Positions 2,630 through 64,000 of a DNA stretch of 64,000 nucleotides are shown one piece after another; the first letter of the stretch is position 1; every line of letters begins with the position of its first letter. Below the pieces are notes generated by a model. That model was not told where the DNA came from. It ran no database searches and saw only the letters and a program-made list of their open reading frames with translations. The DNA comes from an uncultured Gammaproteobacteria bacterium (GTDB taxonomy: Bacteria; Patescibacteriota; Patescibacteriia; JACPL01; CAZRYK01): contig CAZRYK010000001.1 in assembly GCA_964604315.1 (NCBI GenBank), positions 2,459 to 66,458 of the forward strand, read 5' to 3'. Both the position numbers and the translations under genes were made by a program.

Positions 2630-2700
2630 GCGAGAGTAGTATAATGGTAATACGTGGCCTTCCCAAGGCTAAATCGGGGGTTCGATTCCCCTCTCTCGCT
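2630..2700 (+). tRNA. tRNA-Gly (anticodon CCC)
   Basis: Cloverleaf read by hand. Acceptor GCGAGAG/CTCTCGC, D stem GTAT/ATAC, anticodon stem TGGCC/GGCTA with loop TTCCCAA, T arm GGGGG-TTCGATT-CCCCT. Confidence 0.8.
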
Positions 2701-5370: not shown

Positions 5371-5404
5371 ACCCCCTGCTGAAAATTGCGGGGGTTTGTT
5401 TTTT
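5371..5404 (+). terminator. Rho-independent terminator
   Basis: CCCCCTGC-loop-GCGGGGG followed by TTTGTTTTTT. Confidence 0.55.
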
Positions 5405-5421: not shown

Positions 5422-5579
5422 TGTGTGAGTGTGAGTAGTTCGCCCGCCTTTGCTAGAGCTTCGGCGAGGCAAGTATTTAGGGGTAAACTTTGCTCAAGAG
5501 GTTTTAAAAATGTTCTGCCTTGCGCTAAGTACAAAATACTAATTACGCATTACTCAAACTTTGCGTGAGCAAAGTTTAC
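5422..5579 (-). repeat. tRNA 3'-flank repeat element, copy C
   Basis: Reverse complement aligns along its length with the elements at 58987-59156 and 62553-62708. Begins CGTAAACTTTGCTCACGCAAAGTTTG directly after the tRNA-Cys 3' end and ends ACTCACACTCACACA. Confidence 0.7.
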
Positions 5580-5581
5580 GG

Positions 5582-5654
5582 AGGCCTAGATGGGATTTGC
5601 ACCCATGAATAGCGGTTTTGCAGACCGCCGTGTTAGCTACTTCACCACTAGGCC
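5582..5654 (-). tRNA. tRNA-Cys (anticodon GCA)
   Basis: Hand-folded. Acceptor GGCCTAG/CTAGGCC, anticodon stem GCGGT/ACCGC with loop CTGCAAA, T arm TGGGT-GCAAATC-CCATC. Confidence 0.6.
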
Positions 5655-18751: not shown

Positions 18752-18912
18752 GAGCTCCTTTCAATAATCGCTTTCTTGCCATTTTGGATGATCGTGAGAG
18801 CGAAACGCGTAAAGAACGAGGAGGAATAGCGAAACTATTCTGACGAGTTCTGAATGCGTTGTAGCCTCATGAGCGCCAAAAGGGCTGAATCGGGATTATG
18901 GAAAGGAGCTCC
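18752..18912. repeat. IR-bounded conserved structured element, copy 1 (homologous to 58607-58772)
   Basis: Terminal IR AGAGCTCCTTTC / GAAAGGAGCTCC. Shared core GACGAGGAGGAATAG-hairpin-CTATT..GACGAGTTCTGAA.G.GTTG.AGGCC. Lies 26 nt upstream of the rpsF start. Confidence 0.5.
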
Positions 18913-43698: not shown

Positions 43699-43737
43699 AT
43701 GCTCGTATCGTATCAAAATTCCTCTCTTTGGCAAAGT

Positions 43738-43920
43738 TATAGACCTCACATTATGAAATAGGACTTAGAAATACAAAAACAAGATGAGATGCGACGGGTT
43801 GGAGCAAGAAAAAAGAGGAAGTGTAGCCATAGCTACATTGAGTGTTTTTTCTTGGGAAACCCGAGCAGATCGCTTGCTTTTTGTATTTATGGAGTACTCT
43901 TTCATAGGGTGAGGTCTATA
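43738..43920. mobile_element. MITE-like near-palindromic element with about 45-bp imperfect terminal inverted repeats, flanked by TA
   Basis: TATAGACCTCACATTATGAAATAGGACTTAGAAATACAAAAACAAG ... CTTGCTTTTTGTATTTATGGAGTACTCTTTCATAGGGTGAGGTCTATA. Central palindrome TGTAGCCATAGCTACA. A second copy starts at 63895. Confidence 0.5.
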
Positions 43921-43956
43921 CCTTGGCAAGAGCTAAGCTCTTGCCAAAATCAAAAT

Positions 43957-43977
43957 GTTCGAAACTCGGTTTCGAAC
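43957..43977. repeat. Conserved hairpin GTTCGAAA-CTCGG-TTTCGAAC (family of three)
   Basis: Same stem and loop at 63334-63362 and 63816-63836; preceded here by the perfect hairpin TTGGCAAGAGC-TAA-GCTCTTGCCAA at 43923-43947. Confidence 0.45.
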
Positions 43978-43990
43978 AACAAAAAAACAG

Positions 43991-58606: not shown

Positions 58607-58772
58607 TTTAGAGCTCATCTCAAAAATAGCTTTCAAGACATTTGAGATGCCATTTGAGCCGAAACACTTGAAGGACGAGGAGGAATAGTGGTACTATTGC
58701 GACGAGTTCTGAAAGTGTTGCAGGCCAAATGGGGCTAAAATGGCCGGAAGATTATTTTTGAGATGAGCTCTA
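58607..58772. repeat. IR-bounded conserved structured element, copy 2 (homologous to 18752-18912)
   Basis: 20-bp perfect terminal IR TTTAGAGCTCATCTCAAAAATA / TATTTTTGAGATGAGCTCTA. Same conserved core, with hairpin GAATAG-TGGTA-CTATTG. Confidence 0.5.
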
Positions 58773-58814
58773 GTACCAATAAGCAGTAACGTTTTATAAA
58801 AACCCCATATAAGG

Positions 58815-58901
58815 GGGCAGGTGGTGTAACTGGTAGCCACGTAAGGTTTAGGACCTTATGCCTTTACCGGCGTGAGGGTTCAAATCCCTCCCTGCCCACC
58901 A
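58815..58901 (+). tRNA. tRNA-Leu (anticodon TAG), class II with long variable arm; CCA encoded
   Basis: Acceptor GGGCAGG/CCTGCCC, anticodon stem TAAGG/CCTTA with loop TTTAGGA, long variable arm, T arm GAGGG-TTCAAAT-CCCTC. Confidence 0.8.
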
Positions 58902-58912
58902 AGAATAAATCC

Positions 58913-58986
58913 GCGCGCTTAGCTCAGTTGGTTAGAGCGTTTGCTCGACACGCAAAAGGTCGGAAGTTCGAATCTTCCAGCGCGCA
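58913..58986 (+). tRNA. tRNA-Val (anticodon GAC), with unusual C at position 33
   Basis: Acceptor GCGCGCT/AGCGCGC, D arm GCTC..GAGC, anticodon stem TTTGC/GCAAA with loop TCGACAC, T arm GGAAG-TTCGAAT-CTTCC. Confidence 0.65.
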
Positions 58987-59156
58987 CGTAAATTTTGCTG
59001 ACGCAAAGTTTGGGTAATGAGTAATTAGTACTTTGTACTTAGCGCAAGGTAGGATATTCTCAAAATATCTTGAGCAAAGTTTACCCCTAAATACCCGCCC
59101 GCCACGCAAGCCGAGCATGCGAGGCGTTGCGGGCAGGCCAATTACTCACACTCACA
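58987..59156 (+). repeat. tRNA 3'-flank repeat element, copy V (includes GC-rich palindromic module 59094-59137)
   Basis: Starts CGTAAATTTTGCTGACGCAAAGTTTG right after the tRNA-Val discriminator; ends ACTCACACTCACACA, overlapping the last codons of vapC. Confidence 0.7.
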
Positions 59157-59538
59157 CAGTATAAATCTCAAGATCAGGGATCCCTTGAAAATCCCCCGTA
59201 TTTAATGTTGCCAGTTCTGCCTTATTAATGATCGCTGTTGCGGCAATACCCGCATCGACAAATTCTATGGGCCGCAAAAGATCACGCGCAATCTTCCCGG
59301 CGAATTCTGCGGTTTCAAATGTATAAGGAAGAATACGCAGTGGCGCAATCGTTGCAAGCAGATAATCTTCTTTCACCGAATCGCGTGTGCTTCTGCCTTC
59401 ATATAATTCTTGCACCGTGAGTAACGATATTGCTAAATTGGCTTTCGGCACGCGTTTTGCCATTTCCATAAGAAGCGTTGTCGCCGACCCACGCTGACGC
59501 AAATGATCAATAATGATATTCGTATCAAGAATTACCAT
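59152..59538 (-). CDS. vapC: PIN-domain toxin VapC
   Basis: 'MVILDTNIIIDHL'; 128 aa. Confidence 0.8.
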   Translation of the reverse strand: MVILDTNIIIDHLRQRGSATTLLMEMAKRVPKANLAISLLTVQELYEGRSTRDSVKEDYLLATIAPLRILPYTFETAEFAGKIARDLLRPIEFVDAGIAATAIINKAELATLNTGDFQGIPDLEIYTV

Positions 59539-61805: not shown

Positions 61806-62480
61806 ATGCGTGCTTATAGCAAGATACAACAAAAAGCTATTCTCTTAAGAAGAGGAGGAAAGACCTACTCCGAAATCCAGCGCATTCTTAAAATAAAAAT
61901 CCCAAAAAGTACTCTCTCTACATGGTGCCACCAATATTCTCTTTCGCAAGAACACCAACAAAGGATCGATAAGATCGTTAATTTGAACCTTAAAAAAGCA
62001 CGAGAAATAGGATTACTTGTCCATGTAAAAAAAAGGAAATTATACTTCGCGGAAATAGAGTATAGAAATCGTGGACTACTAGCTTCACTAAGAAATAAGA
62101 AAGTTGCAAAACTTGCGCTTGCAGTTCTCTATGTCGCGGAAGGTAGTAAAAGGAATATTGGCTCTTTAACTTTTGGAAATTCCGATCCTGGCATCATAAA
62201 ACTCTTTTTTCAACTCCTGCGATACTGTTACTCCATCGATGAAACAAAATTTCGATGTACCCTCCAATGTCGGGCTGACCAAGATACTGAAAAATTAGAA
62301 GAATTTTGGTCGAGAGTCACGCGAATCCCTCGAAAACAATTTTATCATGCAAGAGTTGATCCGCGAACGGTTGGGAAACCTTCACGAAAAATCGATTACA
62401 AGGGGGTTTGTAGAGTTAATTATTTCTCTGCTGAAATTTTCCACGAACTTTCTATAATAGGAAAAATGATAACATCATAA
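61806..62480 (+). CDS. Free-standing LAGLIDADG-like homing endonuclease with N-terminal HTH, in an AT-rich islet
   Basis: 'LAKLALAVLYVAEGSKRNIGSLTFGNSD' resembles the single-motif LAGLIDADG core (compare I-CreI 'LAGFVDGDGS...LSLTFQV'). About 36% GC versus 47% surroundings. Stop is immediately followed by tRNA-Ala. Confidence 0.5.
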   Translation: MRAYSKIQQKAILLRRGGKTYSEIQRILKIKIPKSTLSTWCHQYSLSQEHQQRIDKIVNLNLKKAREIGLLVHVKKRKLYFAEIEYRNRGLLASLRNKKVAKLALAVLYVAEGSKRNIGSLTFGNSDPGIIKLFFQLLRYCYSIDETKFRCTLQCRADQDTEKLEEFWSRVTRIPRKQFYHARVDPRTVGKPSRKIDYKGVCRVNYFSAEIFHELSIIGKMITS

Positions 62481-62552
62481 GGGCCCTTAGCTCATTTGGT
62501 AGAGCGTCTGGCTGGCAGTCAGAAGGTGACCGGTTCGATCCCGGTAGGGTCC
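62481..62552 (+). tRNA. tRNA-Ala (anticodon GGC)
   Basis: Acceptor GGGCCCT/AGGGTCC with G3:U70, anticodon stem TCTGG/TCAGA with loop CTGGCAG, T arm ACCGG-TTCGATC-CCGGT. Confidence 0.85.
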
Positions 62553-62708
62553 ACAACACGTACCGTATGGTACGTGGTCCACGTAAACTTTGCTCACGCA
62601 AAGTTTGTGTAATGAGTCATTCGTAGTTGATACCTAGCGCAAGGTAGAATTTTCTTAAAATCTCTTGAGCAAAGTTTACCCCTAAATACAAACTACTCAC
62701 ACTCACAC
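62553..62708 (+). repeat. tRNA 3'-flank repeat element, copy A
   Basis: After a 28-nt hairpin (ACGTACC-GTAT-GGTACGT) that re-duplicates GGTCCA of the tRNA end, the sequence CGTAAACTTTGCTCACGCAAAGTTTG...ACTCACACTCACACA aligns with copies V and C. Confidence 0.7.
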
Positions 62709-62710
62709 AA

Positions 62711-63091
62711 TTGCTGGCGAAATTTTGTATGCCCATTCTTACTGGCAACACGCGCGAACGTATTCAACAAAAACCCGAACATAACGCCTGGTTTGTTGGC
62801 CATTTTTTAACGGAAGATTCTCCGCTGAAAAATGATCACGCGGAAGTGAAATGGATCGAGCGCAAAAAAGGCATGACAAAACAGAACAAAAAACATACCC
62901 AAACGGCACATTCGCTTATTATCTTGATCGCGGGGAAAATACAATTTCATTTTCACGAAACCCAAAAATCCTATACACTATCTAAGCAAGGCGATTATCT
63001 TTACTACGATGCCAGTGAGGATTCCCATGAAAGTCTGCCTCTTGAAGATGTGACGGCAATCGAAATTCGCTGGCCATCGAAACGATCGTAA
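62711..63091 (+). CDS. Hypothetical small protein (possibly cupin-like); track ORF starts at TTG, first ATG at 62729
   Basis: 126 aa; beta-rich; no catalytic motif recognised. Confidence 0.35.
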   Translation: MLAKFCMPILTGNTRERIQQKPEHNAWFVGHFLTEDSPLKNDHAEVKWIERKKGMTKQNKKHTQTAHSLIILIAGKIQFHFHETQKSYTLSKQGDYLYYDASEDSHESLPLEDVTAIEIRWPSKRS

Positions 63092-63110: not shown

Positions 63111-63183
63111 CGGGGTATGGCGCAGTTGGTAGCGCGCACGCTTCGGGTGCGTGAGGCCCCCGGTTCGAGTCCGGGTACCCCGA
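63111..63183 (+). tRNA. tRNA-Pro (anticodon CGG)
   Basis: Acceptor CGGGGTA/TACCCCG, D stem GCGC/GCGC, anticodon stem CACGC/GCGTG with loop TTCGGGT, T arm CCCGG-TTCGAGT-CCGGG. Confidence 0.85.
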
Positions 63184-63242: not shown

Positions 63243-63284
63243 CCCGCCCGCCACGCAAGCCGAGCTTGCGAGGCGTTGCGGGCA
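63243..63284. repeat. Isolated copy of the GC-rich palindromic module of the tRNA-flank repeat
   Basis: CCCGCCCGCCACGCAAGCCGAGCTTGCGAGGCGTTGCGGGCA matches 59094-59137 apart from one base; lies 60 nt after tRNA-Pro. Confidence 0.5.
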
Positions 63285-63435
63285 CGCGAATCCGGCATCC
63301 CCGACCAAGAGAGAAAAAAATGAGGCCAAGGGTGTATGTTCGAAACTCGGTTTTGGACATACGATCTGTGGACAGTTTTTTTGCTTAATCGCAAAAAATC
63401 TATTATACTTGAGCTCTCATCACTAACACTTTTTT

Positions 63436-63783
63436 ATGAACAGAGAAACAGAACTCCCCATGGAGGTTCGTATAGCACAGGAATTGATCCCTGCTATTGA
63501 AAAAGCGAGCACAGCCACCGGGTACGACGGAACGGTCAGAAGCATTGATAGCCTCTACGGGTATTTAGCTAATGGCGGAAAAATAGACGATAAGACAAAG
63601 GTAGACCTTTTGCGCGCTCTTAGCGAATGGACTCGGATACAAAAATTAAACTTTACTACGGGCCTTAATATTATAAAAATGCTGGAAAAAAAATCCCCCG
63701 ATGATTCAGGACTTACACAAACAGTTCATTCTGAAAATGATGGCGTAAGCATAGAAGAATCTAAAGGACTGACGGAACAATAA
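63436..63783 (+). CDS. Hypothetical protein
   Basis: 115 aa; no motif recognised. Confidence 0.4.
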   Translation: MNRETELPMEVRIAQELIPAIEKASTATGYDGTVRSIDSLYGYLANGGKIDDKTKVDLLRALSEWTRIQKLNFTTGLNIIKMLEKKSPDDSGLTQTVHSENDGVSIEESKGLTEQ

Positions 63784-63894
63784 ATTCAACAACCGCGAAC
63801 AGTTGCGATGATGAAGTTCGAAACTCGGTTTTGAACATACGGTTCAAGAGGTTTTTGTTATTGCGTTGTAGGTGTACCCTTCCCCAGACTATAC

Positions 63895-64000
63895 TATAGA
63901 CCTCACACTATGAAAGTGAACTTAGAAATACAAAAACAAGATGAGATGCGACGGGTTGGAGCAAGAAAAAATACGAAGTGTAGCCATAGCTACATTGAGT
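63895..64000. mobile_element. Second copy of the MITE-like element (truncated by the window end)
   Basis: TATAGACCTCACACTATGAAAGTGAACTTAGAAATACAAAAACAAGATGAGATGCGACGGGTTGGAGCAAGAAAAAA...GTGTAGCCATAGCTACATTGAGT aligns with 43738-43845; again preceded by TA. Confidence 0.45.

Follow-up and report, generated by a model that had tools for sequence, protein, structure and literature searches.

Why does the same non-coding sequence of about 130-170 bases stand behind three different transfer RNA (tRNA) genes, each time in the direction of the tRNA? This question is raised by a 64-kb stretch of bacterial DNA (contig CAZRYK010000001.1, positions 2,459 to 66,458; hereafter the window), in which one copy of a repeat follows each of tRNA-Val, tRNA-Ala and tRNA-Cys. 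An earlier note on this DNA had considered three origins: a tRNA trailer or processing signal, an element resembling MITEs (miniature inverted-repeat transposable elements) or SINEs (short interspersed nuclear elements), and att-like scars of integration. The first two are viable and can be combined; att scars are disfavoured. The explanation preferred here, tentatively and at somewhat less than an even chance, is a lineage-specific, non-autonomous repeat with tRNA 3' ends as its target; it would be transcribed as a tRNA trailer, its 5' end being set by tRNA 3' processing.

Three whole copies are delimited by alignment, blastn and nhmmer:
58987-59158, plus strand: Val copy
62582-62709, plus strand: Ala copy
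5422-5580, minus strand: Cys copy

The unit consists of a 108-nt core, a slot for an optional GC-rich hairpin and an 18-nt CA-rich tail. The cores lie as follows:
58987-59094, plus strand: Val core, 108 nt, its first base C adjoining the discriminator A58986
62582-62689, plus strand: Ala core, followed by AA and the tail (62692-62709), without a GC hairpin
5473-5580, minus strand: Cys core, 108 nt, with an extra C (5581) between the core and the discriminator U (5582)

The cores align without gaps and are 88% identical in all three pairs, with 18 variable columns; the longest invariant block of the three-copy alignment comprises 27 nt (TCTTGAGCAAAGTTTACCCCTAAATAC). The shared motifs that had been quoted before, a 26-nt hairpin, a 26-nt CTTGAGCAAAGTTTACCCCTAAATAC block and ACTCACACTCACACA, occur exactly three times each in the window, a count that was not attained in any of 100 shuffles. 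A fourth copy was found in the 64 kb neither by nhmmer nor by blastn. The Val copy was recovered in three independent Logan assemblies (L002-L004) with a single nucleotide polymorphism and the Cys copy, identical, in another one (L013); thus, the repeat is not an assembly artefact. The Ala copy comes from one assembly, and the Logan contig L008 stops within tRNA-Ala. The chance of finding three copies at tRNA 3' ends in tRNA orientation is estimated at about 4e-10, with the Ala copy counted solely via a duplicated tRNA end (see below).

Six tRNA genes were called in the window by ARAGORN and Rfam, in agreement. Only one of them encodes CCA:
2630-2700, plus strand: tRNA-Gly(CCC), without encoded CCA
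5582-5654, minus strand: tRNA-Cys(GCA), without encoded CCA
58815-58901, plus strand: tRNA-Leu(TAG), CCA encoded
58913-58986, plus strand: tRNA-Val(GAC), without encoded CCA, second gene of a tRNA-Leu/tRNA-Val pair
62481-62553, plus strand: tRNA-Ala(GGC), without encoded CCA, promoter-like site at 62431-62458
63111-63183, plus strand: tRNA-Pro(CGG), without encoded CCA

The Val and Cys copies begin 1-2 nt past the discriminator. At the Val junction, discriminator A is followed by C and GTAAAT, at the Cys junction discriminator U by CC and GTAAAC. The predicted closing helix of the core begins with G and is thus separated from the tRNA by one (Val) or two (Cys) C residues. The distal end is sharp and common to all copies, with a CACACA boundary. 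The earlier note was right about the three copies, their common orientation relative to the tRNA and the shared motifs. It had placed all three starts immediately after the discriminator/CC; the junctions are not identical, and Val and Cys differ by one base (C versus CC). Its start of the Ala copy (62553) has to be replaced by 62582, as 62554-62581 is not homologous to the repeat, and the distal ends are 59158, 62709 and 5422. Its palindrome needs revision, too (see below).

In the Ala copy, the following segment separates tRNA and repeat:
62554-62581, plus strand: Ala spacer, 28 nt, unrelated to the repeat

The spacer contains an 8-bp hairpin (62557-62576, CACGTACC-GTAT-GGTACGTG) and ends with GGTCCA (62576-62581), which is identical to the last six bases of tRNA-Ala (62548-62553). 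The repeat starts directly after it. The prior chance of finding GGTCCA at that exact spot is about 2e-4. In the simplest reading, the Ala copy once abutted tRNA-Ala and was later shifted by a 22-nt palindromic insertion with a 6-bp duplication.

The unit is found behind three tRNAs in one register and one orientation, which argues that it was copied between loci by something that recognizes the tRNA end. Since the terminal sequences of these tRNAs differ (...GCGCGCA, ...GGTCCA and ...GGCCTC), recognition would concern structure or processing rather than a DNA motif. The insertion site would be the 3' boundary of tRNA genes without encoded CCA, and the target would be read either as RNA or as single-stranded DNA able to form a cloverleaf. 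The element would then be transcribed as the first part of the tRNA 3' trailer and cut off at the 3'-processing site, presumably by an RNase Z-type cut that is followed by CCA addition. In this way, the tRNA machinery would define the 5' end of the element. Neither within the copies nor between them and their tRNAs did consensus scans detect a site resembling a promoter or a terminator. Therefore, co-transcription with the tRNA is the default expectation. Behind tRNA-Cys, the first terminator-like site lies beyond the element:
5373-5394, either strand: bidirectional intrinsic terminator

Spread between unrelated loci appears to be supported by the equal pairwise identities of about 88% and by a tail that overlaps the vapC stop codon. 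Other MITE-like families in the same 64 kb are likewise counted as support for spread. The stable folds, the substitutions that preserve G-U pairs, the palindrome accepted at a hairpin apex in a relative and the copy kept there at the Cys locus (see below) are further points in favour of the preferred explanation. Orientation follows the tRNA and not replication, because copies are located on both strands (two plus, one minus) while the GC skew is uniform: It is mostly negative, and the cumulative skew drops steadily without a switch across the window. With n = 3, this indication is weak.

How is the core built? A helix of 14 bp (positions 2-15 with 85-98) can close it and would enclose internal hairpins that vary. 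In the other fold, positions 4-12 pair with 17-25 in a 9-10-bp hairpin at the 5' end. The first arm, GTAAACTTTGCTC, is complementary to both GCAAAGTTT (core 17-25) and GAGCAAAGTTTAC (core 86-98). Each core contains GCAAAGTTT twice in direct and once in inverted orientation, which yields two pairing options and makes the local 5' hairpin possible. In the window, GCAAAGTTT occurs eight times against 1.5 expected, and every occurrence falls within the three copies. Within the element lies a perfect inverted repeat of 9 bp, AAACTTTGC-N4-GCAAAGTTT, accompanied by a third half-site. Folded as single strands, the copies exceed shuffled sequences in stability (z from -2.6 to -4.0), an effect largely due to the 14-bp inverted repeat. 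The proposed switch-like alternative pairing is borne out insofar as the complementarity is present; covariation was found for 0 of 31 pairs, and a 14-bp inverted repeat would equally produce the alternative pairing if one of its arms had a further copy inside. The substitutions C7U (Val) and C45U (Cys) preserve G-U pairs on the tRNA-sense strand, and the long invariant blocks include CCCCUAAAUAC, which is predicted to be single-stranded. A plausible case can be made for structure and constraint of the core. No conserved coding frame is present: All three plus-strand frames contain stops in two of the three copies, and there is no shared start.

The slot and the tail are occupied as follows:
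59094-59142, plus strand: Val palindrome, GC-rich, imperfect, 49 nt, between core and tail, fold of -24 kcal/mol
59143-59158, plus strand: Val tail, CA-rich, TACTCACACTCACACA, holds the stop codon of the convergent vapC
5440-5472, minus strand: Cys GC hairpin, 33 nt, in the same slot, of a type unlike that of Val, missing from the orthologue in a relative (L014, see below)
5422-5439, minus strand: Cys tail, CA-rich, ACTACTCACACTCACACA
63243-63291, plus strand: solo palindrome, 59 nt past tRNA-Pro, 94% identical to the Val palindrome

In the Ala copy, the slot lacks a GC hairpin. An optional 44-nt palindrome, as described previously, is therefore seen in Val (44-49 nt), the Cys hairpin being a different one of 33 nt and Ala having none. 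The solo palindrome that had been reported behind tRNA-Pro is present, at the coordinates, distance and identity given above.

The history of the element can be followed in relatives, which are few. The best non-self RuvB matches fall from one at 88% identity (L005) to about 60%, so the lineage is barely sampled. The L005 contig ends within tRNA-Cys, and the relatives at about 60% are not syntenic. One informative relative, about 95% identical, was found via an identical 69-aa protein: L014, an 801-bp contig of GCA_040960375.1. Its flanks are 81-96% identical to the window, and the element occupies the same Cys locus there, with tRNA-Cys on one side and the terminator on the other. Consequently, the element at this locus predates the split of the strains. 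Compared with the Cys copy, 55 of 59 positions of the 3' core and 17 of 19 positions of the tail are identical. L014 has no GC hairpin between core and tail. Instead, a palindrome of the Val/Pro family sits inside the core (L014 about 742-783), at the point where the folds place the apex of the central hairpin. The core would thus accept a hairpin insertion at its predicted loop, as a folded nucleic acid would. The position of the palindrome shifts from after the core (Val) to solo (tRNA-Pro) to inside the core (L014), which argues for a separate nested element. GC palindromes change position between strains that are about 95% identical. Together, the GC palindromes (33-49 nt) are best taken as a separate, REP-like (repetitive extragenic palindromic) and fast-moving family of nested mini-elements. 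The slot behind the core would have been invaded repeatedly by such an unrelated GC-rich palindromic mini-element.

Searches elsewhere yielded little. Exact 18-20-mers of the invariant block gave one chance hit in a coding region (L001) among species-representative genomes, none in JGI metagenomes and none in viral contigs; part of this failure is explained by L014, which shows two substitutions inside the invariant block. In blastn searches against phages and plasmids, the element had no match. Its open minus-strand frame, used as a protein query against 5.8 billion proteins, returned no candidates. Rfam 15, in gathering and E-value modes, reported only tRNAs, and the element matches no family.

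Several observations speak against a tRNA-targeting repeat that is transcribed as a trailer. The element is missing behind tRNA-Gly and tRNA-Pro, although both lack CCA. The invariant run of 27 nt exceeds the length expected by chance only marginally (P = 0.06 when the 18 variable columns are placed at random). There are no compensatory pairs among 31 RNAalifold-predicted pairs (18 variable columns, three sequences), and base-pair covariation is likewise absent among the four sequences that include L014. In the central hairpin of the Ala copy, two pairs are altered on both sides in a non-compensatory manner. Between L014 and the window, the 3' core of the element changes by about 7% and neighbouring intergenic DNA by 7-19%; the rate in the element is lower than the synonymous-only change of the adjacent gene (roughly 9 changes in 210 nt). 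Taken together, these comparisons give no clear signal of purifying selection on the element. Pfam scans, which took in about 58 of the 68 open reading frames (ORFs) of the window, found no transposase, integrase or reverse transcriptase domain. To our knowledge, no enzyme inserts DNA at the 3' ends of tRNA genes regardless of sequence. Finally, the evidence base consists of three copies and one partial orthologue.

Among the alternatives, a purely DNA-level selfish element survives best, albeit as an unlikely explanation. It would be a MITE or a palindrome-associated element that is moved by a transposase encoded elsewhere, e.g. of the HUH/Y1 type. Such an enzyme would read the hairpin or cloverleaf of the tRNA gene in single-stranded DNA and place the element at its 3' foot; the element would be transcribed only incidentally, and its RNA would have no role. 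A short, structured, multi-copy element fits this idea. Subterminal hairpins are present on the left in three of three copies and on the right, as GC hairpins of two types, in two of three, the right one missing in the L014 orthologue. In addition, the genome contains several other MITE-like and palindromic families, the GC palindromes are mobile within about 5% divergence, neither covariation nor excess conservation is seen, and the tail supplies the stop codon of vapC. However, the true ends carry no inverted repeats: The 14-bp repeat lies further in, with another 10 nt and the tail conserved outside it. Furthermore, there is neither a target-site duplication nor a conserved 4-5-nt target like that of IS200/IS605, orientation is not linked to the replication strand, and no transposase was found in the part of the window scanned.

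Three known kinds of DNA element were considered and rejected. In a classical DDE-type MITE, the ends should be inverted copies; here, CGTAAACTTTGC... and ...ACTCACACTCACACA are not, and the sole inverted repeat is internal. Pfam scans of the window showed no cognate autonomous insertion sequence either. A simple IS200/IS605-type element or a REP element of the RAYT-dependent kind (REP-RAYT) does not apply, as no tetranucleotide is common to the three 5' flanks and the orientation follows the tRNA. An integron attC site, threaded by hand, does not apply either: The stem is a perfect 14-bp one without extrahelical bases or an unpaired central spacer, and conservation extends past GTTTAC. The check for target-site duplications suggested in the earlier note came out negative, the flanks of the three copies showing no direct repeat (left ...GCGCA, ...GTCCA and ...CCTC; right GTATAA, ATTGCT and AACTAC).

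Distinctly less probable is a trailer RNA or processing module that benefits the host. It would aid or regulate the 3' maturation of CCA-less tRNAs or yield a small RNA released by RNase Z; in the extreme case, it would be a self-cleaving ribozyme. Val and Cys copies do start exactly at the 3' processing site of CCA-less tRNAs, the long invariant blocks and the stable fold would suit an RNA, the wobble-type substitutions fit pairing of the sense strand, and a palindrome is tolerated at the hairpin apex. Theta ribozymes provide a precedent, and a cut at the base of the helix would leave a partial CCA (one or two C after the discriminator). Against this stands the Ala copy, which lies 28 nt from its tRNA, so that cleavage would not mature tRNA-Ala. 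Moreover, tRNA-Gly and tRNA-Pro manage without the element, covariation is absent and the substitution rate resembles that of flanking DNA. The Rfam models for HDV-like (hepatitis delta virus-like), hatchet, twister, pistol and hammerhead ribozymes gave nothing at E <= 10, and the HDV fold cannot be threaded, with only 4-5 nt between the P1-like strands.

The comparison with theta ribozymes deserves a closer look. These minimal HDV-like ribozymes sit right after mostly CCA-less phage tRNAs, and formation of the 3' end of the tRNA has been proposed as their role (Kienbeck et al., 2024, PMC10879173). A predicted structured element immediately 3' of CCA-less tRNA genes is common to both and counts as a precedent for the preferred explanation as well. 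The position is seen in Val and Cys, with Ala 28 nt off. Unlike theta ribozymes, the element matches no ribozyme model, has no double-pseudoknot fold, is 2-3 times longer (108-172 nt) and resides on a bacterial chromosome rather than in a gut phage. An HDV-like or theta ribozyme was rejected, as Rfam gave no match at E <= 10 for 58700-59300 or at the gathering threshold for the window, and threading by hand left a loop of only 4 nt between the P1-like strands. Dicistronic genes offer another parallel. In plant tRNA-snoRNA (small nucleolar RNA) genes and in the tRNA-miRNA (microRNA) genes of MHV68 (murine gammaherpesvirus 68), a small RNA lies downstream of a tRNA, is expressed from the tRNA promoter and is released by RNase Z. 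Here, too, a segment predicted to be structured is located directly downstream of a tRNA, and the dicistronic arrangement (same orientation, no promoter or terminator between tRNA and element) is seen at the level of consensus matches. Those genes, in contrast, belong to eukaryotic or viral RNA polymerase III systems with a known function of the product.

A further RNA-level idea, which we consider a long shot, is a parasite or partner of tRNA maturation. The element might be a new self-cleaving or RNase Z-released trailer RNA, or it might spread by joining of its RNA 5' end to tRNA 3' ends. Joining would occur by template switching of a reverse transcriptase or by ligation onto tRNAs with partial CCA, and the product would be copied into the genome. 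The C (Val) and CC (Cys) before the paired G would then be footprints of incomplete CCA addition. If true, tRNA-linked SINE or retroplasmid biology would have a counterpart in bacteria.

Could the copies be attL-side remnants of related integrative elements or islands that integrated into different tRNA 3' ends? This is very unlikely. Mobile DNA does use the tRNA 3' ends of this lineage (a metagenome contig, L010, has the 22-nt end of tRNA-Cys), degenerate duplicates of their own 3' ends are located behind tRNA-Ala and tRNA-Pro, a break in homology between strains coincides with the 5' end of tRNA-Val, and toxin-antitoxin (TA) modules as well as orphan or phage-like ORFs follow downstream. Yet homology between the copies begins after the tRNA and not within it, and the common CACACA end is unlike what independent decay of islands would leave. 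The duplicated end of tRNA-Ala lies upstream of the element and marks it as original flank rather than incoming DNA. The flanking integrase that the att-scar option would involve was not found among the ORFs scanned, nor is there a direct repeat of at least 12 nt of any tRNA 3' end elsewhere in the window. With attL/attR sites the element shares the location at tRNA 3' ends, in a lineage that shows traces of integration; it differs from them by the lack of a duplicated tRNA 3' segment and of a detected integrase and by two boundaries common to all copies. Hardly credible at all is a DNA site for a sequence-specific protein (operator, roadblock terminator or recombinase-binding site) after tRNA genes, as the confinement of GCAAAGTTT to the three copies (8 versus 1.5 expected) and its operator-like palindromic geometry are outweighed by the lack of half-sites elsewhere in the 64 kb and hence of a regulon, by more than 100 nt conserved outside the sites, and by a single-nucleotide registration with the tRNA end that a protein site leaves unexplained.

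How does the element relate to known repeats? The Correia/CREE, RUP, ERIC, RPE and REP/BIME families are either simple palindromes or bounded by terminal inverted repeats with target-site duplications, and their targets are short sequences (TA, REP loops). Bacterial MITEs and intergenic repeats are often co-transcribed with neighbouring genes. Like them, the element is short, non-coding, multi-copy, hairpin-forming and restricted to a lineage. Unlike MITE, REP and ERIC families, it is registered to a gene boundary, follows the orientation of the tRNA and lacks terminal inverted repeats and target-site duplications. A full-text literature search found no bacterial repeat family that is registered to tRNA 3' ends. 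The element also recalls attC sites and Vibrio cholerae repeats: imperfect palindromes of about 100-130 nt with outer AAC...GTT (GTAAAC...GTTTAC) and TA cassettes nearby. In contrast to attC, conservation extends at least 28 nt past the would-be R' site, there is neither a cassette array nor an integron integrase, and the link to tRNAs would be left unexplained.

Parallels for the placement also come from eukaryotes, with the retroelements TRE5/TRE3 of Dictyostelium and Ty3 of yeast (review: PMC5911963). Their insertion is set by the tRNA gene, with fixed orientation or distance. Likewise, it would be a tRNA gene and not a sequence motif that determines where the element inserts. TRE5/TRE3 and Ty3 are autonomous retrotransposons that read RNA polymerase III transcription factors and insert tens of bp away. 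The element, by contrast, stands at the discriminator base, and no reverse transcriptase was found among the window ORFs scanned. In function, the nearest analogues are theta ribozymes, dicistronic tRNA-small-RNA genes and these retroelements, in structure the bacterial repeats of the MITE, REP and ERIC types. The defining features of all these families were compared with those of the element, and it belongs to none of them. It is a dispersed intergenic repeat with an unusual, gene-boundary-specific placement.

What would follow depends on the rest of the genome. If the link to tRNAs holds genome-wide, a bacterial repeat family would target the 3' boundary of tRNA genes irrespective of sequence. 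Such specificity is known for eukaryotic retroelements and was not found in the literature for bacterial MITE-like elements. It would point to an insertion mechanism that is guided by structure or processing. In addition, it would provide a natural case of tRNA-driven, RNase Z-delimited expression of a small RNA in a streamlined genome, probably of the CPR (candidate phyla radiation) type. A catalytic element would represent a second way, unrelated to the first, of maturing tRNA 3' ends with the help of a ribozyme. Should the link fail genome-wide, one more lineage-specific intergenic repeat has been described.

The window is ordinary chromosome. It contains recA, ftsK, ssb, rpsF, efp, uvrB, polA, ruvA/B, glyA and an aminoacyl-tRNA synthetase gene. 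The presence of pseudopilin-like, LTD and FemAB proteins points to a CPR-like organism with a small genome. The Val copy is followed by a convergent vapBC module with vapC at 59152-59538 on the minus strand. The last two codons of vapC (GTG TGA; 59152-59158) come from the opposite strand of the CA-rich tail. The Cys copy is followed by the terminator and a gene for a small membrane protein. Between the Ala copy and tRNA-Pro, the orphan ORF 62729-63091 shows a weak match to PHROG 24762, a family with no assigned function (E = 8e-9), and has no homologue but itself among 5.8 billion proteins. For ORF126, located downstream of the Ala copy, no homologue but itself was found, and neither it nor ORF115 is recorded in other assemblies. 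Upstream, a 224-aa ORF (61806-62480) ends directly at tRNA-Ala, and the promoter-like site of the tRNA lies within its 3' end. It shows an N-terminal region like a helix-turn-helix motif, and the alpha-beta-beta-alpha-beta-beta-alpha pattern that follows suggests a LAGLIDADG-type fold. This ORF has no match in Pfam, PHROG or PDB, and its AlphaFold model has a mean pLDDT (predicted local distance difference test) of 54.7, too low for a fold search.

Some observations concern the tRNA loci themselves. L003, a contig of the Logan sample SRR12113422, contains tRNA-Val, the element and vapBC at positions 1324-1769, all identical to their counterparts in the window. The homologous part begins precisely with base 1 of tRNA-Val (58912/58913); upstream, a DoxX-like gene takes the place of tRNA-Leu. 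The strains differ here by a rearrangement whose breakpoint coincides with a tRNA boundary. L010 (WNFM01113570.1), an AT-rich, phage-like metagenome contig of 1.6 kb, contains the last 22 nt of this tRNA-Cys (1237-1258) and no full tRNA. The 22-mer corresponds to the T-arm and the acceptor strand and looks like a candidate attP core for integration into tRNA-Cys. When the three tRNA 3' ends were used as probes against viral contigs, only an unrelated high-GC att fragment (L009) was obtained; against metagenomes, L010 was the one contig found. The T-loop of tRNA-Cys is unusual, TGCAAAT instead of TTCGAAT or TTCAAAT. Behind tRNA-Pro, at a distance of 101 nt, a degenerate copy of its 3' end is located at 63284-63304 (14/21, P about 0.02). 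Together with tRNA-Pro, it brackets two GC hairpins, one of which is the perfect palindrome CCCCGACGTACGTCGGGG. This copy may be the scar of an integration event.

Other short repeat families occur in the window as well, and small selfish repeats are evidently active in this genome. A repeat of about 164 bp (58609-58772 and 18752-18911) has terminal inverted repeats of about 38 bp (TAGAGCTC...GAGCTCTA) and 71% internal identity, and one copy lies 42 nt ahead of tRNA-Leu. Motifs within this repeat, CGAAAC and CTGACGAG/GCGACGAG, recall a hammerhead core, but Rfam shows no match. Another element, MITE-like and about 207 bp in length, has inverted repeats of 40 bp and is located at 43726-43932 and 63895-64000, the second copy being cut by the window edge. 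The copies are 94% identical over 106 nt, and the first one overlaps the annotated start of ruvA. The palindrome TTGGCAAGAGCTAAGCTCTTGCCA (43922-43946) adjoins this element and also occurs in the relative with 88% RuvB identity (L005 4124-4147) just upstream of tRNA-Cys, a place where the window lacks it. Finally, a 26-nt, terminator-looking hairpin repeat, GTTCGAAACTCGGTTT(C/T)G(A/G)ACA, is present at 43957-43982, 63338-63363 and 63816-63841, and two of its copies flank the orphan ORF 63436-63783.

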